From positions 849,655 through 913,654 of the forward strand of contig NMRA01000106.1 of NCBI GenBank assembly GCA_002633005.1: a DNA stretch of 64,000 nt. Direction: 5' to 3'. Origin of the DNA: Phoronis australis. Its lineage: Eukaryota; Animalia; Phoronida. The notes under the pieces are model-generated. The model was not told the origin of the DNA. It ran no database searches and was given only the letters and a program-made list of their open reading frames with translations. A program made the position numbers and the translations under genes. Positions 3,001-63,500 of the stretch are shown one piece after another; position 1 is the stretch's first letter, and every line of letters starts with the position of its first letter.

Positions 3001-6000
3001 GCTTAAATTGTAAGATAAACTTTTGTGAGAATTATGAAGCTGGCAGTTCATGTGCTGTATTCTTTAATATTGCGTATTGGCAGCTATGTATTTCTTCCAA
3101 AGTATGTCAAAACACTTAGACCTATGGTTATATTTTCCTTCATTCTCAATGTCATTTGTAGGTTGGTCGCTCATTTGGGTTGGTGTTCTCATCCTCATCG
3201 TCCTTTATGTCTTCGCTCTGCTCAGTTTTGTCTTCTTCCGTGATCTGTATGTGTCCTCTAAAGGACTGTACTGCGAGACAATGTATCAATGTTATCTGAC
3301 TGTTGTACACCGCGGATTCATCATGGGGCCATTTGAGGTAAACCACAATCAAGTTAATAATGGAATTGTCTAAGATTAAACAACGTCACTGTATGACAAT
3401 ATTTCAATGATGTTAGTTATTGTTATAGTTATTCTTCTTACCTGATGGTTGATGTATTTTACCTCGACTTTAGAATTTCTGCATTGACCTTAGTCGTATT
3501 CTATTCTATATTCGTTGTTCTTGATAAATGTTTTATTGCAGTAGCCCATATGCCTTCTTGTTGAATATTCAGGCACTTCTAATGTAACTTTCATGTTATG
3601 TAATCTTTCTCTCCATCTTCTGTTCTAGTACTTCTCGGAAATCGAGGACGGCAAATCATTTGAGTGGCATGCACTCAAGGCTCTGTTTGATTTGGCCTTC
3701 TTTATCGTCATCACAACTATTGGTCTGAATGTCATCTTTGGTATCATTGTCGACACATTCTCTGAATTGAGAGACAGCAAGGTATTTATATTTGTTTAGG
3801 GTTAAATATGCTTTCTTTGAGAACCAGATATTCTCTAATCAGAAACAAATCAGGCTCACATAGTATACAGAGTAGAGGGTTGAAGAACTTTGGCCTCTTG
3901 AAGTTGATTTTTATTAGAATGACTTAAAACATTTGACAAGTGTTGAGGACATTAAATTCTGTGACATCATTATTAATGGTGTATTATTGCCTCGAACATA
4001 AACTATTCTGTTATTTTGTGCTGAATCAAGCATCACTTGTATCAGTTTTTACACAGTGTCAGAGAGGTATTTTATTTGTTATTCATAAAATGTTTGATTT
4101 ATTGATTTGCAATGAAAACAAATCAGATCTGTAGATATACAAAAACATCTCATGATAAGGCAATTGCCTTTTAGTGTGATCACTTACGAGTTGGAGGACC
4201 TTATATTACATAACATTTACCAGAGTAAAAATCGCCAGACTCCATGCTGTAACTGAGGGTTGTCTTGTTTTTACAGTGGCAGACGGACCAGGACATGGCT
4301 AACGTCTGCTTCATCTGTAGCAGAAGTAGCTATGACTTTGAACACCATGGAGAGGTGAGACCACAAGATTAATTGTATGAATATGTAAATTTGACAAGAT
4401 TAATTGTTATACAGAAACGTTTAAATGGACTCATTTAATTCAATTCCCACCAGTCATGACTGATCCCTACTCAAATTGATTACCTAAGTTGTTTCAGCAT
4501 ATTGTGGCAGAACAATAGAATAGATATCGATTAAAAACTGGTGCTAAACTCAAAAGTAAGTTGTGCATTGTAAGTTGAAAATAATCGTGAATTTTAGTTA
4601 AACTCTTATATAATGTTTCAATAGTTAATCTTCCTTGTTACACATGAGGTCTTCTGCCACAACACACTACTTGACAATACAAAGATTATGTATCTTCTTT
4701 TATCAGAAACTGGCAAGAACTTATCTAGATCTTTAAACTTCGTTTCAGTTCAAATTAGAGAAAATATGATTTTTGTGATCATTGATGTGTAACACTTGTT
4801 CACACGACATTATTATCCAGGGGTTTGAGCACCATGTAAAGAATGAACATAACCAGTGGGCGTATCTGTTCTTCTTCATACATCTGTCTGAGACACGTTC
4901 CAATGACTACAGTGCTTTGGAGCTTCATGTGGCTAATCTGGTAAGAACACAGATTACTTTAAGTCACGCATGTGACAATACAGTGTAAGCCAGAAGTATT
5001 CAGACAAAATGACTAGCAATTCCCCGACATAATGGACAGTTGAAAGCAAATTCATCGTTATAGTCTACACTCATGACTGAGAATGAAGGGGAAATAACGG
5101 AAAAGTTAGTAAGGTGGCTAAGCTATTCTGTCATTAGTATTTTGCCGTCCTAATTGGTATTACCAGTAGTTTTTGGCGTCACCAGAATTAGCCATCATGA
5201 CGGTAAAATGGTATTTTGTCTGATTACTTTTGTCCTGTACTGTAGTTCAAGCTGAAGTTGTAAACTTCATCATATGTAATTAGGAACAATAACTTGCTGT
5301 ATTTAAAAACCTTAACAAAATGGTTTCAGAGGTGGTGCTGTATCGAGCTTGAATAGTAAACATATTATCAAAATTGACCTATGTTGAGGAACGTTTTTAT
5401 TATGTTTTTATTTGTTTAATTTAATTGTTTAAATTTAGAGTGCAACAACTTACTGTTTAACCCTACATTTCCTGATAGCAGACAAACATAGACAGTGTAT
5501 AATGCAGCTTTAACTGACAAATTAAATTTAACTTGTTAAATGCATTTATCGTCATTATTTTGACNTCGCTAGGTCAGTTACTGTATCTATGTTCAGTAGA
5601 GAGTAGAGTTTTGTTCAGAAAGTATGAACGCAACGGAATAAAGACCGTGAACAATGAAAAGTGTCGTGCATTCAACAAATTCTGTATAACAGAAAACTTG
5701 CTCCCGAAGTACAGTCTGTATTTAAAAACCATAACAAAATGGTTTCAGAGGTGGTGCTGTATCCAGCTTGAATAGTAAACATACTATCAAAATTGACCTA
5801 TGTTGAGGAACGTTTTTTATTTCAAACTTGTTACGTTTTTATTTGTTTAATTTATGTTATTTGTTTAAATTTAGAGTGCAATTGTTTAAGCCTACATTGC
5901 CTGATAAGTACAGATGAATATAGACAGTGTATAATACAGCTTTAGCTGACAAAAAACCTTAACATCATGTTTGTGAAGAAGACTTAAAGTATGTAGTAAT

Positions 6001-10335: not shown

Positions 10336-23159
<12,824 letters not shown>

Positions 23160-27397: not shown

Positions 27398-45050
<17,653 letters not shown>

Positions 45051-46947: not shown

Positions 46948-49900
46948 CTACATGCCGTTGTAAGCCGGTCCTTCTCCACCTTGTGGACACACCCAATTGA
47001 TGTTCTGGCTGGGGTCTTTAATGTCACATGTCTTACAGTGGATGCAGTTCTGTGCGTTGATCTGCAGCCGCATTCCACCGTCCTCCACTTCTACGTATTC
47101 ATACACGCCTGAAAACAAGAATGCATAGCCATTACATAATTAACGGATTAGCTTCATTCCCTGGCATGGTGGAGGCCACTAAACCAAAGGCAAAACAATG
47201 ACTGTGACCGTTAAGTGAATGGTACACAAATGCCAAGTGCCACTAAGCAACCATAAACCTCCCAGCTTCCGTCACATAAACATTTGTCTTTTGATTTAGA
47301 ATACTCACCACTACAAAATTGGTCTCAACATTTTCCACAGTCAAATTAGAAATTATTTCTTGGCATGAAACGAACTCTCAGTGTGCTATTGTTTGAGATC
47401 AGGTTCCATGAGTCGATTAGTCAAAGCAGATCATTTTTGTACAGAGCATAGTCTAAAGCTATATCAAACTGTCAATTCTTTGCAAACCCAGAAATGATTT
47501 CTCAATAAACAAGTAGTTTGAAAAAATAGAATATTAAAATTAACATGGGTTTATAGCTACAGCAAAAAAGAATATTGCAGCTGGAAACTAAAATCAAATA
47601 GGCAAGTCCAGAAATATCCTGCTTCATAATTACATTAAAATAAACAGATAGCATTACAACAGTCAACTTTCAAATATACCTAATAATGCAAGAGACACCA
47701 CATAATTTAATAAAACTCAAACTCAATAGGCAGAAATCAGTAAGAGTCTGATTTACATCATTTTAATTCAATGAATAAGGCAAACAATCACAGTGAATTA
47801 TGATGGTAAAAGACCTTCATTTAGTATTTTCTTTTATCCAAGAAGAAATTTAGCATATTCAGGTAGCAGCCTACTAATTGACCTGTATGACCACCATTGC
47901 TAATGTTATATTACCTGCTGGGCAAAACCTTTGTTCTGGGCCATCGTATATGGCAAGGTTGTTATTAACAGGAACATCATCGTTCTTCAGTGTGAGGTGG
48001 GCTGGTTGATCATGATCATGATTTGTGCCTGTTAGTGCCACGGACGACAATAAATCAAAGCTAATTTCACCATCAGGCTTGGGGTAGTCAATCGGTGTAC
48101 ATTCTGAAGCAGGCTTCAGCTTACTGGAGTCTAATTCTGAAAAAAAGGAAGATAGTGGCAAATTGATTCCACAAGCTGTAAGAGGCATTCCAGTCTACAT
48201 CCTGCAGTCTACAAGAAAGAATTGGCCTAAATTGAAACTCACAGGCTGACGTAATTCCTCAAGGTGTCCATCTCTAAGTACAATACTTACCACCGTGCTT
48301 CTCTAAGAGAAAGAAGTAACTTCAGATACAGTGTGATACCTCAGTGAAAGCATGATCAGAGTCAGTGTTACAGTCAAATTGTAAAAAGCTGTATAAGGAA
48401 TGCTATTAACTTAAATTCTCAGAACACTGCAATTTGTGGTTACATTTAGTTGCTGCTCTCTGTCCATGAACGCAAAATTTGGTAAAATTATTACCAAGCA
48501 TGGTCAGTGATTGTAAAGAGACAAAATCAGAGAGAATACCTTTGTGCCTTAATGTCCATGGTTCCTTTCCTCGTAAAAAGCAGTAGAATATTCCAGTATA
48601 AAGAAGTCCACCGTATAGCCCCAAAGGACTGTCGAAAGATGGACGAACGTTGCGAACCGACTTCAGCTCTTGCCACACCCAGCTGTTTTGCATATTTGTC
48701 GTGTAGATTTCAGGATTCAGGCCAACTAAAAGATTTTGAAAAAATTCAGTACGTGTAAAAACAAGCAAATGTTTTGAAATAATGACGATGACTCGCACAT
48801 TATTAAGGGTTTTGGACAGGAATTGATGCAAGTCACCAGTCACCAGTAGAACTAGCATAACTTTTCTCAAAAATAGATGGATGAATTTTGGGTGGTGTTT
48901 CGTACACCAAAGACAATCAAGACTATGTGCTTTGCTTGAAATGCATGGCGATATCGTAAATTTTCGCGAGTATTTTTGGGTCTATGAAAAGCAAGTTTGA
49001 CCCTAATGTCACAGCAACACACATATAATGTACACAGCATGTGGACAAATGTCATAGCACATGTTCAAACAATAGCTAAACAATACATTGCAATATAATG
49101 CTTATGGCAAGTATGTTCTAGTTAGCTCTATTTCCAAAGTTCCTTCATTATTTGTGTTCATTGATCATCGAAAAATATTATTGAAGTTGGTGCAACATAT
49201 CTTTTATTGAAAAAATGAGAAAGTAAAATTTCATATCATGTCCTAAATTGGTGAAAATTGACCGTGATCTCCAAAAAAGAAGACTAAGTTATTCACAACC
49301 CAAGAAATACAGCCAGAGCTTGGGTTGCTTTGTGGTTGTTTGTGTCGTTATTTATGGTGTAGTTTTTATAACCAAGCAGAAGCATACAGGACTTAAAAAA
49401 CCTTGCTTGTAAAGGGTGTTCATTTCATGAAAATAATTCCAAATGTCCTCTACCCTTATCTGGAAGTTGAGTAGTAAAGCACAAAGATAAAACGCTAATT
49501 TAAATGCACATAAAATGCCAGCACAAATTAAGTTTTAGAGGTAACATTAATAAACTTGACTATTATGTAGAGTGCACCTGAACTCACCAGNTTGGTGAAT
49601 TGTCAGCGTGCTTGTTGATTGTCTCATATACACTCTCAGCTCCCACAATGCCGCTCTTCATTGCATTGTGGGTACCTTTGATCTTGGGCACGTTCATGAA
49701 GCCAGGACTACAGCCTATTAGGCAGCCTCCAGGGAAGGTAAGTTTGGGTATAGACTGAAACACACAAAAGGATGACTAAATCTGAAGTCTGTAGCTTAAG
49801 GTAAGGGAGTACGCTGATATACTATAACAAATAGATTGAATCTACCTGAGGAAGCACCAAAGCCAAATGGTAGACAGTATAATTATCAAAACATCCAGTT

Positions 49901-52900
49901 TTAAAAGACTGTTGTGAGACAAGAATAAACAGCAGCACATGCTAAGTTAAGGTAGATTCACAACACGTTCCTCAAAGAGTGACTTCAACAGGGGAGGGAG
50001 TGACCCCCGGGATGTCACTGATATTAATTATTAACCTGGAAGCCTCCCTCATTCAGTGCTAACAGTGAAGGGAGTGACCCCCGGGATGTCACAGATATTA
50101 ATTACTAACCTGGAAGCCCCCCTCATTCAGTGCTCTGGCTCCATACGCTATCCTCTTGCCACCTCGCAACACTTTCTCCACAGACGGGTGGTGCTTGAAC
50201 TTCTGGAAGGTCTTGAATGGATTGAGGTAGGGATTGCTGTAGTCGAGGCCAACCTGATGTCAAAGGTCAAAGAGCATGAAAATGAAGGTCACAGCTGATT
50301 GGTCACATCAGATAACAAGTTAGCTTCTCACCATTGATTTCCACAGCAAAACCATTTAAGTATTAGAATTTTGAGGATAATCTAGTAAACAGGAATGTGC
50401 CATTGCCAACTAAAGAAAGAATATGAATTAAAGATATAAAAGGTGAATTTTGAGGATATAGATACTTTTAGCAAAGTAATCAATGCATTAATCTACTGAT
50501 TGTATTATAATTTCCATGAACAAGATTATGAGAAATTGTTGTGCAACCACAACATCATCTAAATTGTACAGAAATTTATAAAGTTAACGAAATTTCTAAT
50601 GTTCTTAGGCACATGTACAATCAGTTACTCAAAAGCATTTCATGAATCCAAAACACACATTAAAGTGCCTTGCTACATACCACCATGCCTATAGCAATGA
50701 GCGGCGCACCTTCACCTAAATGGTACAAGAAAGAGCCGGCGTATGTGTTCCTGTCCTGTGAACAAAGCATGCATGTTATGCATACATTCTGACAATAAAA
50801 TATAAAACAATACCGTAGAATACACAAGAACATGAAGTGTTCAAGAGACTCACAAAAGAACATCACAAAAATTAAATTACATGCCGCAATTAGACGACGA
50901 ATTGTCAAACATAAATTTTAATCTTACTGTCAAAAAAGTTCAAATGCTATACTTAATAATTCTAAAATTATCATAATGTTTTACTAAATCCTCTAATATG
51001 CTGAGGTTGGGGAACTTGAAAAACAATGTTTTTCAAATTTTTAAACTTCAAAATCAGAATAAACGAGCAATGTTGCTGATCTAGAAGAGTTAAGTCATTT
51101 GAGAAGAAAGTTGGCATTCCAACATCAGAAGATGATTGACAGTGACTTTAACCAACATAAAAAAAGAAATCAGTCCTCCATAAGTTTTGTTCCTCACCAC
51201 AGGCCATCCCACTGTGTGTTCCACTCTCCCTGGTTTGTGATTGGCTGGATCTATTTCCCATACTTCCTTGAAGCCAATACCGTAAGACTGTGGATCACAT
51301 TCGTCACGGAGATTGAACTGTGTGTAAAGCTGTTTGGCTAGGTGTCCATGGCAACCTTCAGAAAACATGGTGACTTTGGCATGTAGTTCCATTCCTCTCT
51401 CAAAAGTGTCCTGCAGAGAGATTAAACACGTGCTGAATATTAAAAGCCAGACAAACTTGTTCTTAACTCACATTTCAAGAAGCAAGTAAACATATATTTT
51501 CATCAAGCTAATAACTTCCACCAGCCATTTTGGTCTTCCACAGGCGATAGATAACTTCAACACACATAAAACCTTATCTGAGTCACACACCACGAAGACA
51601 ATTGCTAGACACATTTGGACAAATCTGGCTAGTGCGGTATGATTCTGCAATGTTGTACATCTTTTTGCAAAAGATTTACATAAAAAATGACAGTCATTTT
51701 CTAAATAAACTTGAAAATACAATTTCAAAACAAAGATAATTTCTACATACTGTTTTTAAACTATGTTGAATTTTTTATGTAATTTAGAAGTTGATATCAA
51801 TTTGTCTTGGCTCCATACACTAAAATTTGCTATATTCGCATAATATACTAAATTTACAGAACTAATGAAATGCAACTTTAAGACGAGAAAAAAAGCAAGC
51901 CTGAATCTCTTGGTTGGATAAAATAACGTCTGGTTGGTCTTTATTACTTAGCTTTATTTTACCTTAGGAGCTCCGTCTTTGTATATTCCCACATCATTTG
52001 TAGCAATCCCTTTCACACTGCCATCCTCATGGTACAAAACCTGAAAAACAAGCCACATGTATTTTATGAAACCATTTTTACTGGCCACCGAATCTACATA
52101 ATTCCAGATTTTAAAACATTTAAATTTTTGCCAGAGAAACATAATTCACCACTATGGATATAATCATTCAGCATGATTGTAATTTTGGTGATAACAGAAA
52201 AATAGAGCAAAGATTTGAATAATCACAATTTTTACATTAAATTGTATAATATGCATAATGAACAGAAAACAGTAAAGTTGTGTGACACTTCACATGAAGT
52301 AAAGTAACAATTTTAAAGTAACAGAAGATCATATTTCAACAGATCTTGGCGTATTAGTTACATAAAAATTTTGACACTGAGCCACGATATAAAATATGTC
52401 TCCAGTACCAGCCAGGATGTTTACCAATGTGGTACATTTGTGACCATAGCAGAAACACCGGCTTTATTTTTTCAATTTAAAGCTTCACAGAACTGAATTT
52501 AACTAAGCTTTGCTCACCTCAGCTGCCGCAGTGCCAGGGTAGACCTCTACACCTAAATTTTCTGCCTGCTCACCTAACCATCGAACTAAGTTCCCAAGGC
52601 GTACAATGAAGTTACCAGTGTTGTGCATTGGGAAAACTGGAATAAAGAAACAAAAAATTCTCAAGACAATCTACATGACCTAGAACTGAACTTAAGGTTG
52701 GAGAGGGACTAGGAATCAGTAATATGTCAATGATCTCAAGTTTGACAGTATTTTTGAAGATTTTGAAAAAGTAGCTTTACCCGTGTTCAGCACCACTTCA
52801 ACAAAGTCCCTAAACGACTAGGGAACCGAACACAGCGAGGCAATAAACAATAACTGCAATATGAATTACCAGCAACACGCCTCGCAAACGTAAGTCCGCA

Positions 52901-55900
52901 AATCAAATCATTGCACAATACAGTCTTCCATTTAACACAGTAGAGGTAACAGATCCTCTCGATGACTTAAACCATCATTGGACAACTTGCTCCAAACAGC
53001 AGAAGAGCACACTTGTGTTAAGTACGCTTAGTAACGAAAAGGTGTCTTGTCTGAAAGTGAACTTTTTGGTGACAAATATCAGACAAAATCTAAAACAAAT
53101 AGTGTAGAAACATGTTACACAAGACAAATTGTACTTACATGGCAAAATAGGAATATTTATCCTTCGTTTTTCTGTCAAGATTGAGAATACATCTTCAGTG
53201 ACTGGAGTGTGTAGTGGTGCCTGTGAAAGTAACACAAGATAACAAGGTGAGCACATCAGGAATAGTACAGAAGTGGCTTCTGCTTTTGCACAAAAACATT
53301 CTTATTTTGGTTCATAAAGTATAAACCTACCTAATACAGTACAAGCCAAAGGTATTCAGACAAAATGACTCAGAATTACCTGACATGACAGTTGGGTGGA
53401 AGCCGAATTCCTGGTAATAGAACTCATAGAAAGTCAGTAACGTGGATAAGCCACTCTGTAAATGGAATTTTATCACCCTTATAGTTATTACCTGTAATTT
53501 TTACAATTAGCAGAATTAGATGTCATAACAGGAATCTGTATTTTGTCTGATTACTTTTGTTTTGTACTGTAGGTGGCAGCACTATCAGGGCATCAAAATA
53601 TTGAATAGAGGTGACCCAGAAAATGAACCCATCAAACTTATAATTAATCCAACACTATTTTATTTATTGCGTTCAAATTTGGTAATTTAAATTTCATTCC
53701 ATGGGTGACCTTTCCCCAGTTTTAACCATGCAGCCAGTTTCCATCAAATTTTTGGTTCTTTCCAACAGAATTATAATTTAGAATTTAACACATTTTGTGG
53801 ATTTGGGTTTCGCGTCGCCCTCTATATGCTGTAACCACAATAACTATTTTCTCATGAACTTTTTGTGGGATTTAATCTCACCAACTTAGGATAAAAATAA
53901 TTGCAAAAAACTCCCTTTTTTCATTTGCGAAACTAGTGCTTTTAACATTGTTGTGATTATTCACATTTTTTCAACACATTATGTGATGGTAGTCATGGTG
54001 TAGAAATGGAACACGAGGCAGCATTAATTTGATGCCTCACGTCCTTCATGGAAAAACAAAGAAATTCCACTAGTCAACTATGCTGTGTCCCAGATTGGTG
54101 GGAATTTTTCATAATACTATTTTTCAAAATCATCAGATGGTGTCAACCTCCAAATACCCGCTGTCCCTCAGACATTCCCTGAAAACTTACACCTAATTCT
54201 TCGTAGTTGGGAAACAATTCCATTAAAGCTCGTGGTTCAATACAGGCTCCAGACATAGTGTGACCACCTGCAACAAAAATTAATTTCCAAGTTCAGAGCA
54301 AAATAAAGTTGAACAGCTCTTCAACATGTTTGGCTTTTTGAAATGGGTTTCTTGTTCCACATTTGAGATTTGAAAAGTTTTTACTTCCTAGAGAATTATT
54401 CTTTTAAAAAATGGTAATTAAAAAACAAGACTGAGTTATGATTAACTAAATTCTGGTAGAACTTTGTGCAGTTTTTACCACAATATAATTGAAAAGTAAA
54501 ATGCATTAAAATGTCCATACATAATAGGTCATTTCAATAACTTTTTCCAACATGTCAGTGCGTTGTATTTTTGCTCATTTCATTTACAACAGAATCATCA
54601 CCATCACTTTTATTTAAAACATCTGAATGTATCCAGAATTGGCAAAAATTCACCAAACACAGAAATAAGCATCACATTTCATTAAGAGTTTGTTGACATA
54701 TCTAGTGCTCATTGTTCACCTCACTTTACAAAAGGTGACACAAAAATTACAATACCCATCAACTCACCTATTTCTGATGCCTTTTCCACAACACACACTC
54801 TAAATTCATCATTGCCATCAGCATTGGCAAGTTGTTTCAGTCTACAGGCTGCCGACAGACCAGCAGGACCCCCACCCACAATGAGCACATCTACCTCATC
54901 TGACACTCTCTCCATGTCTACGTCTAAACAAAATGGAGCGATTCATTAATAGTGAGGGTAGGGCGAGTGGGTTGCAATGTGACTACAATAGTTAAATGCA
55001 ACAATTCACCGATAAACAGACCCAGTGAAATGAATCTTTCACACGAGGCTATGTGAGCCTGCATTTAAACAGAAAATGAAGATATTCATTAAGTAAACAC
55101 ATATCTACAGAAACTGAAGATTGTTGTTGTGTCCAAGTTCCACTTGTAATTTAAGACAGCTATAATTCTTAAGCCCGGTTACGAATGTATCGCCAATATA
55201 AAAACTAAAATTGACAAGGAAAATTTTACCTTTCCATCTTGGATCAGTGTCCCTGCTGACTATTGAGTAGTGTGTTGTTATCTTGGGTTGTGTTGACAGT
55301 TGACGACAACATCTCCACACAGACTTTGCACCTGAAATTTAACCATACAAGTAACATCACCAAAACAGGTTTCAACTAAAACTGGACATCGGTTAAAGGA
55401 TTAGCACATCTTTGCCTAACTTACTTACAATCTACATTGGTTGTTCAATTGGCTCAAAAACGACCATCAAGTCATGGAGTCCTCTTGCCATAGTCAAGTT
55501 ATCAGTCCTTTTGGACATTGCAAGTTAGTAATCCCTAGCACTAGGAACAAAACATTGTTCAGATTCAACATTTGGTGTGTCATTGACTGAATGTACACAA
55601 GAGCTGTTGCACTGAATGTAAAATATGGACATTCTCTAATTATTTCAAACAAAAAATTCCCAAAATTTTCATTTTTCAAAGACTGATTATCATTGTGAAA
55701 ATAATGAAAACTTTGCCAAATGTCGTTTTGGGGCATCTACACAGCACATAGCACACAGCACGCAACACACAGCACATGGCACACAGCACACAACACAAAT
55801 TATGCTGGTAATTATACAAAATGTTCTTAGTCTTTTCTTTTGAGGAAAAATTTTGACAAAATTGAATTTCACAAGTCATTAATAATAAATAAGTGAGGAA

Positions 55901-58529
55901 TTACCATATACTAATAGTGAGACCACAGGTCTTCATTCAAAGACAGGTCCCTAGTTATGTGCTACTCATAAAGTATGCAGTTTGAGAGTCCAGCAAATAT
56001 AATCTATTAAGGCAATGATAATAAGTTGATCTATATCATAAGTGACCCAAAAATTAATGTTTTATAAATTTTAAAGCAACTTCATTCGCTGGTAAACTTT
56101 GACATTTTGTTATATAAAATTAATTTCGATGACCTTGCATATAGTAATTTAAGCAAATATTAACATGTCTGACGAAAAATACCGTGGAGCTAAAAATGGC
56201 TGTCAGAGTGGGTTTACAAGTTATCAGCCACTCAAACTAGATCTTTTCAACATGATTAGAATTCCTGCATAAACTTTAGCCACTTGACACTAAACAATTC
56301 TCAGGTAGTTGTCTCACAGATAAGAGGTTCTGTGAATACTGGCAATGTTTCAGTCCTGACCTTCAATTAATTCCAAAATAACATTCTGGCCGTCAAACAG
56401 ACGGCTGCTGCGTAACCCCTTGCTTGGGAGTCCGAGTATTTTGCGCTTTGAAACGTACAGTTGTATATTTTAGCAAATAAAATCTTTTAATGTGTATGAC
56501 ATGTGACTTCCGTGTGTAACGCGGAGTTGTATATAGCTCTTCTAAATTACAAACACTGAACAGAGTGTCTTGTGGTCTAGAGGTTTAGAGTGAAGTTAAT
56601 TCGTAAATATTGAGAAAGCGGTCATCATTTCAAGCTTTTTTAAATTTTACCAACACTTTTTTAATTCTGACCAATCCCATCGGAACCCGTCCAAAATAAC
56701 ATCTTGGCCGTCCAACAGACAGCCACTGCGTAAACCCTTGCTTGGGAGTCTGATTATTTTACGCTTTGCAACGTACAGTTGTATATTTTAACGTATAAAA
56801 TCTTTTAATGTGTATGACATGTGACTTCCGTGTGTAACGCGGAGTCGTATAAAGCTCTTCTAAATTACAAACACTGAACAGAGTGTCTTGTGGTCTAGAG
56901 GTTTAGAGTGAAGTTAATTCGTTTTATGACCAAGGTACAATACCCGGTGTCAGAAGCAAAGTTTTTGTGTAACAAATTTGTAATGAATGAAACAAAAATT
57001 GTGAACTTGCTGAATCAAATAATCGTGGAGAGCGGAAAAAGGTTAGAAAATTCATAAACGTAGAGACCCAAATAAGNCCTGACCTTCAATTAATTCCAAA
57101 ATAACATTCTGGCCGTCAAACAGACGGCTGCTGCGTAACCCCTTGCTTGGGAGTCCAAGTATTTTGCGCTTTGAAACGTACAGTTGTATATTTTAGCAAA
57201 TAAAATCTTTTAATGTGTATGACATGTGACTTCCGTGTGTAACGTGGAGTTGTATATAGCTCTTATAAATTACAAAAACCGAACTGAGTGTCTCGTGGTC
57301 TAGAGGTTTAGAGCAAATTAACTTGGTCTTACGACCACGGTACGATACCCGGTGTCAGAAGCAAAGTTTTTGTGTAACAAATTTGTAATGAATGAAACAA
57401 AAATTGTGAACTTGCTGAATCAAATAATTGTGGAGAGTGGAAAAAGATTTGAAAATTAATAAACGTGGAGACCCAAATAAGTGTCGTATAGACCGGAAAA
57501 CGAGTCTGAAAAAATAATCGTAAAGATACGGCTATTTGGAACTCAAGAATAACTGTCTTTTCCATTTGACCTCAAGCAATGACTGTAATGGCTTTAAGTC
57601 TTCCATTTCACTCTAGCTAGGAAAAGTTAACAACACCAACAGCGCCCTCTATTTTCAAAAGGTATAGCGACAGCAATATATGACTTTGACAGTTTAGTCA
57701 ATGTGAGACATAATTTGCCAAAAGTTTCCATCATACGGCAGCCCTATTGAGTGACTACCATCTGTGCTAGCAGCGCAGGGCACGAGTCGGATATGATGGA
57801 CCTGATTTAGATAACCAGTTTTATCCACTAAATAACGGCCATTATTTAGTGATTGCCTGGTTCTCTAAGTCAGGGTCCATTATATCCGACTAGTGCCGCT
57901 GCGCTGGACTGGTTCAGACAGTAGTACTGTCTAGCCAAGAGGAGGCAGCACACACAGGGGACCCGTTTTACAAAACCAACCCGTGTATTTGTCTTCAGGC
58001 TTTATCCTATTGGAGGGCTCTGATGACACACAAGCATATTCTTTACTATATTATATACCTAAGAATTTCCTCTACACTGCACTACAGTCAGGTCAGTCAG
58101 GCCAGGGGTAGGGGAACTCTGGGACCCCTTACACCCTTACCATTGACCCAGACTAGAAGATAAATATACCCCGGTATCATACCGCTATACCGAGTATACC
58201 GGGTATGTAAACCAGCGCTACCTATATCCAATGATGCAAAGAAACAAACTACTTGAGTTACGTACAAATAAAACGATCTTCTGCAGTAGCCTTAATAGGC
58301 AGGGGACATCGGCAAGTACCACACCACTGACTGTTTACCCACTTAACCACTGACGAGAGTGAACACTGCTGAAGTCTTTACGTAATCATGTCAGTTGGCT
58401 ACAGTGACCACACTTGGCTCGTGTTACTGACATTAACCAGAATGTTGTTCGAGAAATCTGCTGACATTTGCCTCAAAAAAGAAATCTCTAATTTCAGTTT
58501 AACTTACCTGTCAATCTTCCGACAAACAT
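46948..58529 (-). CDS. ETFDH: Electron transfer flavoprotein-ubiquinone oxidoreductase, mitochondrial
   Basis: About 14 exons; first exon 58529-58508 (MFVGRLT), second 55331-55230 ([17 protein letters not shown]). FAD motif [26 protein letters not shown], 4Fe-4S ligands QRFCPAG...[16 protein letters not shown]-terminus [11 protein letters not shown] stray N at 49591 creates a false frameshift. Confidence 0.97.
53337..53569. mobile_element. MITE, same family as 4981-5242
   Basis: TA|CAGTACAAGCCAAAGGTATTCAGACAAAAT ... ATTTTGTCTGATTACTTTTGTTTTGTACTG|TA. Confidence 0.75.
55739..55797. repeat. Degenerate CACAG(CA)-type microsatellite
   Basis: ACAGCACATAGCACACAGCAC... periodicity. Confidence 0.7.
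56355..57482. repeat. Three copies of an about 240-bp segment (near 56355, 56690, 57078); copies across the N at 57077 are probably two haplotypes, one carrying a local tandem duplication
   Basis: Shared CCAAAATAACAT...GGTCTAGAGGTTTAGAG; 56927-57076 also recurs at about 57332-57482. Confidence 0.75.
57752..57927. mobile_element. Fold-back (palindromic) element in ETFDH intron 1
   Basis: About 48-bp arms CAGCGCAGGGCACGAGTCGGATATGATGGACCTGATTTAGATAACCAG / CTGGTTCTCTAAGTCAGGGTCCATTATATCCGACTAGTGCCGCTGCGCTG, with an inner stem CACTAAATAA/TTATTTAGTG. Confidence 0.65.
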
Positions 58530-58713
58530 TTTCGATCTCAATCACTGCCAGACCAGAACAAACTGGCTTGCTCCAGTGAAAAAGGTCCTCTCTCAGCAAA
58601 ACTAGGTCAACTTTAATGTCCACTTATGATAAACTTACGTCAGTCGATTCATTTTCACGAAAGACGTCGCTCTAGTCGGTTGGCGAAGCGCGTCAAGTAT
58701 CGCAAGACAAGAC
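58530..58713. promoter_or_regulatory. Compact bidirectional promoter between ETFDH and the Scm3/HJURP-like gene
   Basis: 184 bp between divergent ATGs; locally CpG-rich (GACGTCGC, GGCGAAGCGCG). Confidence 0.65.
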
Positions 58714-60744
58714 ATGGCGACTGCCATTGATTTCGAATCCATTATTCGCAATGCAAGAGTGGACAATGCTGTGAGATCTAGAACAAATTTTGCGTCGATT
58801 TTTGAAAAGGTATACAAGATTAAATCGTTTGAAATGCTCTAGTCAATGCCTAATTCTAATTTTATAATGTATCAACAGTGGAAACGGTGAATGTTCAGTG
58901 ACCAGTCTCACTCTACCTCTGTGGGCCTGTGGCTCACAGGCGCGTGCTCATGTCACGAGCGCGACAAACTTTTGTTACTATAGGCAAACAAATGATATTC
59001 ATTAGATTGTTTTTCACTCAAGCGGCTGCAGCCTGCAAGGTGAGTGTTGATTGACTCCTAGATTTTGCATGCGCCTGCTCCACTCGCTAGCTACATGTTT
59101 CACGTGACCGAGGTGACGAGCAGAACTATACCCGGGCTGTGGGAAATTTCGGGGATGTAACGGAGCTCAATAACGCAGTGCTACCAAGTTTTATTTTTGC
59201 GAGTCTTTTCACAGCTAGCTGACCGGTTACGTCATAACCCGCAGTATCGTACAAAGGCCTTGATAACTACATTTTGTCCGGCGGTCATGTTCAGTCCCCG
59301 GCGGTCCTGTTTTCTGGTGGGGCGGTCATGTTTTTATATGCGTCAGTCCCATTTTCTGGTGTGACGGTCCCATTTGATCCCCGGAGGTCCTGTTTTGGGT
59401 GAGTCAGTCCGATTTAGAGGACCGGCGGTCATGTTGTTTCTTACTTAGGCAATGACCATCGCCTCTGTTGGCCCGAACCAGAGGCGATGCAGACCCTATA
59501 GGCGCTCTGTACGCCGGAAGCTTTTCGGCGAATTATGCCTCGCACCGACTAAACCATCAAAGTCACGTTGTTATAAATACCTTTTGCGCATAGAGGAACA
59601 CCTTAGGAGGTTGTCGATGTGTTAAATAATTTAGCTTACTAAAAGAAGACTGTTGTTTTTAATGATCACTAATTTTGCGTCAGATTTTATCTTGCCACTT
59701 TTTTACCCACATCGGTTCAAAGTTGTATATTTAGTAATACCAAGGCTACCTCTGGCTCTGTCTTGGCGCTGCTTTCTGCCGGTCTGGAAGTTGAAACGTA
59801 ACACAGGCAGACGAATTTCACATCGACTGGTTACCATATAAGAAACATACATGTCTTTTATTTGAGTTAGTGTTGGTACCAGTGGCAGATACGAGGAACA
59901 GATAAACTCGTGGGCATGTGTTCTGAAATAGCCCATCCCCACCCCCGGTTGCCCCAATCAGTACCAATAGTCAATACCCCAATCTGTCCAACCTCCAGCA
60001 CCACCCCTAATTTACAATAAATTTGGCATTGATTTCTTTTGTTAATGTGGTCCTGTTAAATGCTGGTTTTGTAGTACTTTAAGGATTAAAAAGCTGCAAG
60101 GCAGATAATGGAAATTGATTGTTTGTGATGATTCAATATGCTCTTTATTACAGTATGATCGTGAATTTCCTGACAGCGACGAAATCAACTTAAGTGATTT
60201 TTCTATCGTTAAAGATCGAGGTATGTCTCATTGAACTGTTCTAAAATCATCATTTGTAAATGGCATCTGCTCATCTGCTCATTCCCCTGAACAACAATGA
60301 TTCCAATAGAACAACACAATTCCTGATAGACGTTGATACTATGGCACCATAGGCTATTGTACATGGACCGCCAACTCTGTATATTTTCAAGGGACGAAAT
60401 GTGTGATCTTACGCATAAGTCGTGATGTCATTATTCACTAGCGACACCTGGCAAAATTAGCAAGTTTTACTTCTGGCATGTGCTAATCATAGTCAGCTGT
60501 TGTGTGGTCATTTGCTAAAAGTACTCATGGTACCAACAGTTCTATTATTGGAAAACTCTGAGCAGCATTTCAATGCAGACATTTTTTTTTTCATTGTACT
60601 GGACAGTTAAGTAAATGCTAGAATTTTTCGTCTCAATACACTAATTAATATTTTGTTTTTATTAAATTAATTTTTATTATTACCTCAATTACATTGATTA
60701 TTATCACTGTTGTTGTTATTATTATTATTATTATATTATTATTA

Positions 60745-60775
<31 letters not shown>

Positions 60776-60844
60776 TAGGCCATTTGAAAAAGATCAAGAC
60801 TCAAAGTTTTGGTCACAGTCGACTTGCCGTGGAGAGAAGGAGAG
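58714..60844 (+). CDS. 5' exons of an Scm3/HJURP-family CENP-A (CenH3) chaperone; gene continues downstream
   Basis: GACATGGCG start; exons 58714-58809 (phase 0), 60154-60220 (phase 1), 60779-60844 splice GT-AG to MATAIDFESIIRNARVDNAVRSRTNFASIFEK|YDREFPDSDEINLSDFSIVKDR|GHLKKIKTQSFGHSRLAVERRR, matching the Scm3 pattern (F/W)xxI(F/I)xKY...D(E)(I/V)(D/N)L...IV.D.GH(L/I). Confidence 0.82.
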
Positions 60845-62209
60845 GTAGAGTCATGAGTTTACAGTTAAAATTTTATGTATAAAATGATGTGTCCAAGGTC
60901 ACTACAGCACTGCATAGTTATACGACCTCGAACTACGTGGTATCAATACAGCTGAATTTCTCTATGAGTTCTGAGGAATGTCCATGTCCTTCATATTGGA
61001 ATTATGGAGAGAAATTCAGACACAACTAGGTTGTTTAATGGCACTGCACTTAATTAAAACTTTGTTGCTCGGTCATCATTAAACATTTACTTAAAAAAAA
61101 TTTTGGAAATTTGTTTTTGTCAATATGCTTGATGCTGATATCATGTTCATGCACTTTTAATGTTTACAAAGGTTAGACAGACTCTATTCACATTTTGTTT
61201 TCATGAAACAACTGCAGTTAAAGTCTCAACGATTTTGAATAAAAATATTGCCCTTATTTGTTTTTCAGGGGGTTTGAACACTGTTGCAAATGCCCAAAAT
61301 TTCTTATTTAAAATGTTGTCGCATGGTAGCTATGGTACATAACTTGAACTTAAACAAATGCTCAAGTAACCAGTCCAAATATAGTAAACATACAGCACAA
61401 CAGTCATCAAACATACAGCACAACAGTCATCAAACATACAGCACAACAGTCATCAAACATACAGCACAACAGNNNNNNNNNNNNNNNNNNNNNNNNNNNN
61501 NNNNNNNNNNNNNNNNNNNNNNNNNNNNNNNNNNNNNNNNNNNNNNNNNNNNNNNNNNNNNNNNNNNNNNNNNNNNNNNNNNNNNNNNNNNNNNNNNNNN
61601 NNNNNNNNNNNNNNNNNNNNNNNNNNNNNNNNNNNNNNNNNNNNNNNNNNNNNNNNNNNNNNNNNNNNNNNNNNNNNNNNNNNNNNNNNNNNNNNNNNNN
61701 NNNNNNNNNNNNNNNNNNNNNNNNNNNNNNNNNNNNNNNNNNNNNNNNNNNNNNNNNNNNNNNNNNNNNNNNNNNNNNNNNNNNNNNNNNNNNNNNNNNN
61801 NNNNNNNNNNNNNNNNNNNNNNNNNNNNNNNNNNNNNNNNNNNNNNNNNNNNNNNNNNNNNNNNNNNNNNNNNNNNNNNNNNNNNNNNNNNNNNNNNNNN
61901 NACAACTAGTTCTTGTCTGTCAATCATCTAAGTTCTTAACAGGTCCTCCTGGAGGCAATTTGTTTGCAAGTGTTGGATTTTATATTTTAACCTATTAAAA
62001 ATAATTAAAAAATTATGGGTCATTGGTTGGAGAAATAAATGAAAAATATGGGCGGTGGGTACGAAATAAAAGTGCCTTCCCCCCCCTCCCATACAGATTT
62101 TGCTGGAACAGCCCTAATTAATATTTTGTTTTTACTAAATTAATTTTTATTATTAGCTCAATTACATTGATTATTATCACTGTTGTTGTTATTATTATTA
62201 TTATTATTA

Positions 62210-62246
<37 letters not shown>

Positions 62247-62950
62247 TAGGCCATTTGAAAAAGATCAAGACTCAAAGTTTTGGTCACAGTCGACTTGCCG
62301 TGGAGAGAAGGAGAGGTAGAGTCATGAGTTTACAGTTCAAATTTATGCATAAAATGATGTGCCCAAGGTCGCTTCAGCACTGTATAGTTATTCGACCTTG
62401 AACTACATAGTATCAATACAGCTGACTTTCTCTATGAGTTCTGAGGAATGTCCATGGCCTTCATATTGGAATTATGGAGGGAAATTCAGACACAACTAGG
62501 TTGTTTAATGGCACTGCACTTAATTAAAACTTTTTTGCTCAGTCATCATTAAACATTTACTTAAAAAAAATTTTGGGAAATTTGTTTTTGTCAATATGCT
62601 TGATGCTGATATCATGTTCATGCACTTTTAATGTTTACAAAGGTTAGACAGACTCTATTCACATTTTGTTTTCATGAAACAACTGCAGTTCAAGTCTCAA
62701 TGATTTTGAATAAAAATATTTGCTGAAATTGCCCTTATTTGTTTTTCAGGGGGTTTGAACACCGTTGCAAATGCCCAAAATTTCTTATTTAAAATGTTGT
62801 CACATGGTAGCTATGGTACATAACTTGAACTTATGCTCAAGTAACCAGTCCAAATATAGTAAACATACAGCACAACAGTCATCAAACATACAGCACAACA
62901 GTCATCAAACATACAGCACAACAGTCATCAAACTTATAGCACAGCAGTCA
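60641..62950. repeat. About 830-bp segment repeated on either side of the 61473-61901 gap (60641-61472 vs 62113-about 62950), including Scm3-like exon 3 (second copy 62250-62315); probable haplotype duplication
   Basis: Near-identical sequence; exon 3 is identical in both copies. Confidence 0.75.
60716..60776. repeat. (TAT)n microsatellite; second copy at about 62189-62246
   Basis: Read directly; abuts the exon-3 acceptor of the Scm3-like gene. Confidence 0.95.
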
Positions 62951-63057
62951 AACATACAACACAACAGTCAAACATACAACACAAGAGTCGTCAAACTTAC
63001 AGGCTCAACAGTCATCAAACATACAGCACAACAGTCATCAAACATGCAGCACAACAG
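62864..63057. repeat. 23-bp minisatellite CATACAGCACAACAGTCATCAAA (also 61389-61472 running into the gap, and one unit near 63537)
   Basis: Read directly. Confidence 0.9.
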
Positions 63058-63500
63058 ATAAAGTTTGAGTCTAATACTAGAAAAAAACTTACAAAAATTA
63101 GTGACGTTGCGTCCGCATTTCACGGACTTCAGCTTGGCTTGTGACGTTAGTGTTATTCTGGCTAATTGGTGGTGTTTTGACCAGATGGCGTGGCATTGAC
63201 GCCAGAACACCATCCCATACATGTGACAAATCGATTCTGTCCCTTTAACTAGGACAACGATGTTGTGACATCTGCATTTTAATGGACTGTTTCGTTTCAC
63301 CTAACTGTCAGCGCTGGGGATCCTTACACTGAACACCATAGACAACACATGATTTATTACCCTTGGGGGTCTTGTCCTTGACATTAACCAGTTAGCTGCG
63401 GAGAGAATTAAACGGTTTGTGGATGATAGAAATGTCAAACTGTTCAAAATGTCCTCTTGAGGCGGTCAGAAAGACCTGATAGACTCAAACTTTATCTGTT
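63053..63500. mobile_element. About 450-bp element with perfect 21-bp terminal inverted repeats
   Basis: AACAGATAAAGTTTGAGTCTA (63053-63073) and TAGACTCAAACTTTATCTGTT (63480-63500). Confidence 0.7.

Follow-up and report, generated by a model that had tools for sequence, protein, structure and literature searches.

An expressed, spliced gene head-to-head with ETFDH in Phoronis australis that likely encodes the N-terminus of an Scm3/HJURP-type CENP-A chaperone

The window in the present study, by which we mean the whole stretch of 64,000 nt (64 kb) of Phoronis australis DNA that was analyzed, carries a gene for electron transfer flavoprotein-ubiquinone oxidoreductase (ETFDH) on its minus strand and, starting head-to-head with it, three short plus-strand exons that a preliminary description had assigned to an Scm3/HJURP-type chaperone. 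The features of this part of the window are as follows.

46951-58529, minus strand: ETFDH, approximately 14 coding exons, ATG at 58529, head-to-head with the candidate HJURP gene
58508..58713, no strand: putative bidirectional promoter shared by the first coding exon of ETFDH and the candidate HJURP gene, with the start codons separated by 185 nt
58714..58809, plus strand: coding exon 1, 96 nt, 32 codons from the ATG, GT donor with junction reads; predicted to form the long scm3 helix, with the Lys of KY as the last codon
58810..60153, plus strand: intron 1, 1344 nt, phase 0, GT..AG, skipped by 24 reads; separates K from Y and contains dispersed repeats
60154..60220, plus strand: exon 2, 67 nt, reads on both junctions; encodes the Tyr of KY, the acidic loop, and the part of the scm3 domain that is predicted to form beta-strand, Pfam PF10384
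60221..60778, plus strand: intron 2, 558 nt, phase 1, bypassed in 18 reads, which were seen as loose ends
60779..60844, plus strand: exon 3, 66 nt; finishes DxGxL and continues into a basic segment and FG (motifs by eye against published rows)
62250..62315, plus strand: second copy of exon 3, identical, within a duplicated block on the far side of the N gap at 61473-61901

The preliminary description had proposed three exons of 96, 67, and 66 nt with canonical splice sites that join in frame, and the coordinates, lengths, GT..AG sites, and phases (0, 1, and 1) were all confirmed, with a joined frame of 76 residues that is free of stops. The ATG of exon 1 at 58714 has a purine at -3 and a G at +4, and an in-frame stop lies upstream with no in-frame ATG between the two. 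The further proposal that the landmarks of Scm3 are present at the extreme N-terminus also held, as KY occupies residues 32-33, DxGxL occupies residues 53-57, and the acidic, short hydrophobic strand motif lies after KY, where exon 2 aligns to positions 23-46 of the PF10384 model and matches published rows by eye. KY and DxGxL arise solely when the exons are joined, the former across the first junction and the latter across the second, both of which are supported by RNA. The helix region is devoid of Pro and Gly over residues 1-33 and has hydrophobic residues 6, 3, and 2 places before the Lys of KY; its hydrophobic moment was not above that of shuffled sequences (p 0.12-0.55). The FG motif that follows DxGxL is common to many invertebrate rows.

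CpG o/e was 1.01 over 58500-59900 versus 0.49-0.54 in gene bodies, which, together with head-to-head starts 185 nt apart, suggests that 58508..58713 is likely a bidirectional promoter shared by ETFDH and the candidate gene. RNA reads from the opposite strand were found at 58500-58599. Introns 1 and 2 contain dispersed repeats (59000-59800 and 60300-60570) that draw many partial RNA reads on both strands at 90-95% identity, and these are likely to be remnants of transposons that other transcripts also contain.

RNA data from the same species comprised three runs of raw reads, 18-19% of each of which was scanned, and one run of contigs. The preliminary description had named the two junctions as a check on its model, and both were recovered. 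The junction 58809/60154 was spanned by 24 reads in three of the four runs (9, 4, and 11 reads from 7, 4, and 9 start points, respectively), and was absent from the contig run, in which none of the exons was covered. The first mate of these reads was always on the minus strand. In most stranded libraries, this orientation corresponds to RNA from the plus strand. The junction 60220/60779 was missing from the first junction listing, in which the (TTA)n repeat had been skipped, and was seen in 18 reads from two of the four runs (9 in each) as loose letters before 60777 that are those of window positions 60189-60218, the end of exon 2; this end was not seen in the third raw-read run (3 reads) or in the contig run. 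The (TTA)n microsatellite at 60717-60778 adjoins the acceptor of exon 3 at the place where a polypyrimidine tract is expected, and the reads show that this acceptor is used. Exon 3 itself was aligned by 27 reads, all of which were 99% or more alike. The three exons are thus the 5' part of a real, spliced, and expressed gene.

Past 60844, 7, 4, and 3 reads carried one common new sequence of 30 bases, the first 10 codons of which are open by eye, and we regard this sequence as exon 4. Read depth was 0 from 60850 onward and, taken together with the common new sequence, this indicates that the donor of exon 3 is in use; on the same depth, we rejected the reading in which exon 3 continues to a stop near 60880. 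A 16-nt piece of exon 4 was not found in the 64-kb window, in which the only two matches, at 3489 and 10773, each had three mismatches, and, therefore, exon 4 lies either beyond 64000 or inside the N gap at 61473-61901. Since the reads and the reading frame run on into exon 4, the 76 residues represent the N-terminus only. The scm3 domain is N-terminal in the predicted protein; animal members of the family carry it close to the N-terminus of a longer protein that is mostly disordered.

Reads cannot distinguish exon 3 at 60779-60844 from its copy at 62250-62315, which belongs to a duplicated block whose two copies agree at 797 of 823 aligned bases. They leave exon 3 for a new exon, and none enters a second exon 3. 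Duplicates of this kind flank four of the six runs of N across the window, one of them inside RPB1. This pattern and the absence of reads from exon 3 into exon 3 suggest that the second copy is likely an unmerged allele or assembly artefact, and a real tandem exon 3 was rejected on the same grounds. A tandem repeat of approximately 24 nt at 61384-61472 and 62860-63060 enters the N gap and probably caused the break in the assembly.

Regarding family membership, a search of exon 2 (22 aa) against Pfam returned PF10384 (Scm3) with an E-value of 0.0025 and 17.9 bits over model positions 23-45 of 53, and exon 2 with the next Gly matched Scm3 among 24,736 Pfam families with an E-value of 0.0004 and 20.5 bits. 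These scores are significant, yet under the curated cut-off of 24.3 bits, and they are based on single exons and on under half of the model length. Two further parts of the motifs, the His-Leu of DxGxL and the Lys that precedes the matched Tyr, are encoded on other exons and are outside the score of exon 2. The match begins at model position 23; positions 1-22 could be supplied by exon 1, which has 32 residues. Scm3 was the sole Pfam match of any of the three exons, exons 1 and 3 searched alone giving none. As decoys, 120 stop-free frames of 22 aa were taken at random from the window; none matched Scm3 and one matched any family at an E-value of 0.1 or lower. Searches with sequences were negative: exon 1 with 10 intronic codons gave four candidates in 5.8 billion proteins, none at an E-value of up to 10; exon 1 gave none at up to 0.001 in 1.84 billion representative proteins, and its best score in the ESM Atlas, 0.85, was weak and to unnamed short clusters; the exon 2 frame (41 aa) gave no candidate in the protein collection and, in sequence searches of the PDB, one irrelevant dockerin row at an E-value of 1.7 and nothing else.

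Orthologues of Scm3/HJURP were recently reported by Hollis et al. (2026, Sci Adv; PMC13322267) in echinoderms, amphioxus, molluscs, annelids, brachiopods, bryozoans, and flatworms, as well as in priapulids, arthropods, nematodes, cnidarians, placozoans, and sponges. The authors also tested function in zebrafish and C. elegans. The available text of that study defines the scm3 domain as a helix of approximately 25 residues, KY, and an acidic/hydrophobic strand, describes DXGXL as likely ancestral and relaxed in animals, and reports one strong match in most deuterostome genomes; in its table S1, as far as available, the domain is N-terminal in animals, and five lophotrochozoan phyla are represented. 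Three short motifs of the Phoronis peptide are absent from the entire data file of PMC13322267, and the main text has no mention of introns, exons, nemerteans, or phoronids.

We compared the peptide with five chosen ungapped rows of the available part of that data file, counting identities by hand. It was identical to the annelid Capitella ELT94853 at 17 of 29 positions, to XP_063402759 at 21 of 46, to the choanoflagellate XP_001747460 at 15 of 29, to the fungal (yeast) XP_455312 at 10 of 29, and to human HJURP at 6 of 28 over residues 29-56. The motifs of exons 1 and 3 align in register and free of gaps with the published invertebrate rows. The invertebrate orthologues shown in PMC13322267, including Capitella ELT94853, XP_063402759, and those of Biomphalaria, Lingula, and Priapulus, likewise have an N-terminal scm3 domain and share with the Phoronis peptide an Asn 7 places and a hydrophobic residue 6 places ahead of KY, the acidic strand, DxG, and a later FG. 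A difference is the Ser found in Phoronis ten residues before the Lys of KY, at a position that is large and hydrophobic in most of the displayed metazoan rows and Ala in Capitella.

The scm3 domain of human HJURP (PDB 3R45, as named in PMC13322267) shares the N-terminal position, KY, and a Phe-x-Asp loop after KY with the Phoronis peptide, but is without a clear DxGxL, which Phoronis retains in common with fungal and choanoflagellate Scm3 (PF10384). However, three residues past the conserved Leu of the strand, Gly is found in most fungal rows and Phe in the Phoronis peptide, the latter being hydrophobic as in most of the displayed invertebrate rows, and the domain of S. cerevisiae Scm3 is internal (92-141 of 223; PMC13322267). 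The suggestion in the preliminary description that the motif is closer to fungal Scm3 than to HJURP is borne out by the counts for the fungal and human rows; nevertheless, the nearest relatives are invertebrate HJURPs, so that a notably fungal-like character is not supported, and we rejected this resemblance as a special feature. Since the peptide is nearest to invertebrate HJURPs, its fungal-like appearance may be regarded as the ancestral state. Drosophila CAL1 was shown to be an orthologue of Scm3/HJURP (PMC13322267), and its helix is also antiparallel to CENP-A alpha2 (PMC7110144); in the available parts of these two papers, CAL1 lacks KY and has a helix in place of the three-stranded sheet of HJURP, whereas both KY and the strand motifs are canonical in the Phoronis peptide.

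Based on these results, the three exons are very likely the 5' part of a gene encoding the HJURP/Scm3 orthologue of the host, which is predicted to chaperone CENP-A. The helix of exon 1 (approximately residues 10-33) would pack antiparallel on helix alpha2 of CENP-A and block the surface for the (CENP-A-H4)2 tetramer, an arrangement and a block that are both described in the available text of PMC7110144. KY would contact the conserved glutamate of CENP-A alpha2 and the strands of exons 2 and 3 may read the L1 loop, as the corresponding KY and strand do in the part of PMC13322267 that is available. The protein is predicted to carry one soluble CENP-A-H4 dimer and to hand the dimer to DNA, in line with the single dimer carried and the deposition through a dimer intermediate in PMC4027189, as far as its text is available. 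Recruitment to the centromere, which proceeds through Mis18 and CENP-C in the accessible account of PMC13322267, may use Mis18 and/or CENP-C through the C-terminal part beyond the known 76 residues.

Two other readings of the gene need to be considered. It may indeed carry an scm3 domain and yet be a paralogue or derived copy that has lost CENP-A loading, for example, one that binds H3-H4 or acts as a decoy, in which case the functional HJURP would be encoded at another locus. The Ser at a usually hydrophobic position of the helix, as judged by eye, fits such a copy, as does the finding in the available text of PMC4027189 that yeast Scm3 also binds H3-H4 in vitro, and the gene is known from its N-terminal part, not from its C-terminal part. 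We consider this reading improbable because none of KY, the acidic strand, and DxGxL is disrupted, spliced reads were found in all three raw-read runs, and most deuterostome genomes have a single strong match, according to the accessible part of PMC13322267.

An even smaller chance attaches to an unrelated gene in which exon 2 resembles Scm3 fortuitously, for example, a small neighbour of ETFDH of the C4orf46 kind. C4orf46 and ETFDH are named together in the literature. We assume that the two are head-to-head in human. The sub-threshold Pfam score, the shortness of the sequence, and the failure of every sequence search to retrieve a homologue are all compatible with a chance resemblance; on the other hand, an E-value of 0.0004 against 24,736 families with 0 of 120 decoys matching argues against it, the gap-free register of the motifs in exons 1 and 3 with published invertebrate rows extends the likeness beyond exon 2, and families other than Scm3 matched none of the exons. 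We therefore retain the interpretation of the gene as the probable HJURP of the host.

In the preliminary description, the CENP-A loader of most invertebrates was considered to be unclear, with the reservation that recent remote-homology work may already cover this lineage. That the gene fills an open gap is not supported: orthologues across most animals are reported in the available text of PMC13322267, which already answers the question of the presence of Scm3/HJURP in invertebrates, and the Phoronis gene is a real but ordinary addition. What stands is a spliced and expressed gene with an N-terminal Scm3-type domain that, judging from its sequence, is likely the host HJURP. In a literature search on HJURP/Scm3 in mollusc, annelid, or lophotrochozoa, neither HJURP nor Scm3 was named among the matches listed. 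The gene adds one RNA-supported invertebrate HJURP that was missed by whole-ORF and exon-level homology searches, and its unusually canonical scm3 domain may be useful as an intermediate sequence in profile searches and in work on the co-evolution of CENP-A and HJURP in lophotrochozoans.

The exon layout may be of additional interest. We presume that human HJURP has a like layout. It is conceivable, although we regard it as rather unlikely, that the host belongs to a spiralian group without a listed HJURP and that a phase-0 intron cutting KY, followed by a short 3n+1 exon with the strand motif, is an ancient signature of the whole family. If so, the layout would provide a confirmation of orthology that does not depend on the rapidly evolving sequence, and HJURP could be found by it in unannotated genomes. 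The gap inside the scm3 domain of the coelacanth is 64 nt, which is also 3n+1, in the available text of PMC13322267, and no description of the exon/intron layout of HJURP was found in the literature as far as it was accessible.

ETFDH had no close match in the protein collection, the best being 84% on one exon. In a tree of 569 window positions, some of which are intronic read-through, with 43 named sequences chosen from the 120 matches listed, the window sequence fell into a clade of molluscs and annelids with a support of 0.99; its branch was long and its finer placement weak (0.68). The tree was drawn from sequences other than those of nemerteans, phoronids, brachiopods, and flatworms, and at least one cnidarian was misplaced. 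The placement thus supports no more than a probable lophotrochozoan affinity of the host.

Several other features were observed in the window. The gene at approximately 27900-45050 on the plus strand, which we take from its motifs to be RPB1 (the largest subunit of RNA polymerase II), has a heptad C-terminal repeat that is interrupted by an N gap, and position 7 is Lys in many of the distal repeats. A block at 36895-38858 that holds two of its exons recurs at 38860-40830, on the other side of a single N, with 95% identity, and the duplication is likely an unmerged allele. A frame at 3068-3373 on the plus strand is hydrophobic and, in our view, presumably resembles the pore region of a channel of the IP3 or ryanodine receptor type, with no supporting Pfam match. 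A 36-nt tandem repeat at 22081-22550 gives rise to a repetitive minus-strand frame of 181 aa, and an exon at 12928-13236 on the minus strand, part of a multi-exon gene, encodes EGF-like domains (Pfam PF00008, E-value 1.2e-09).
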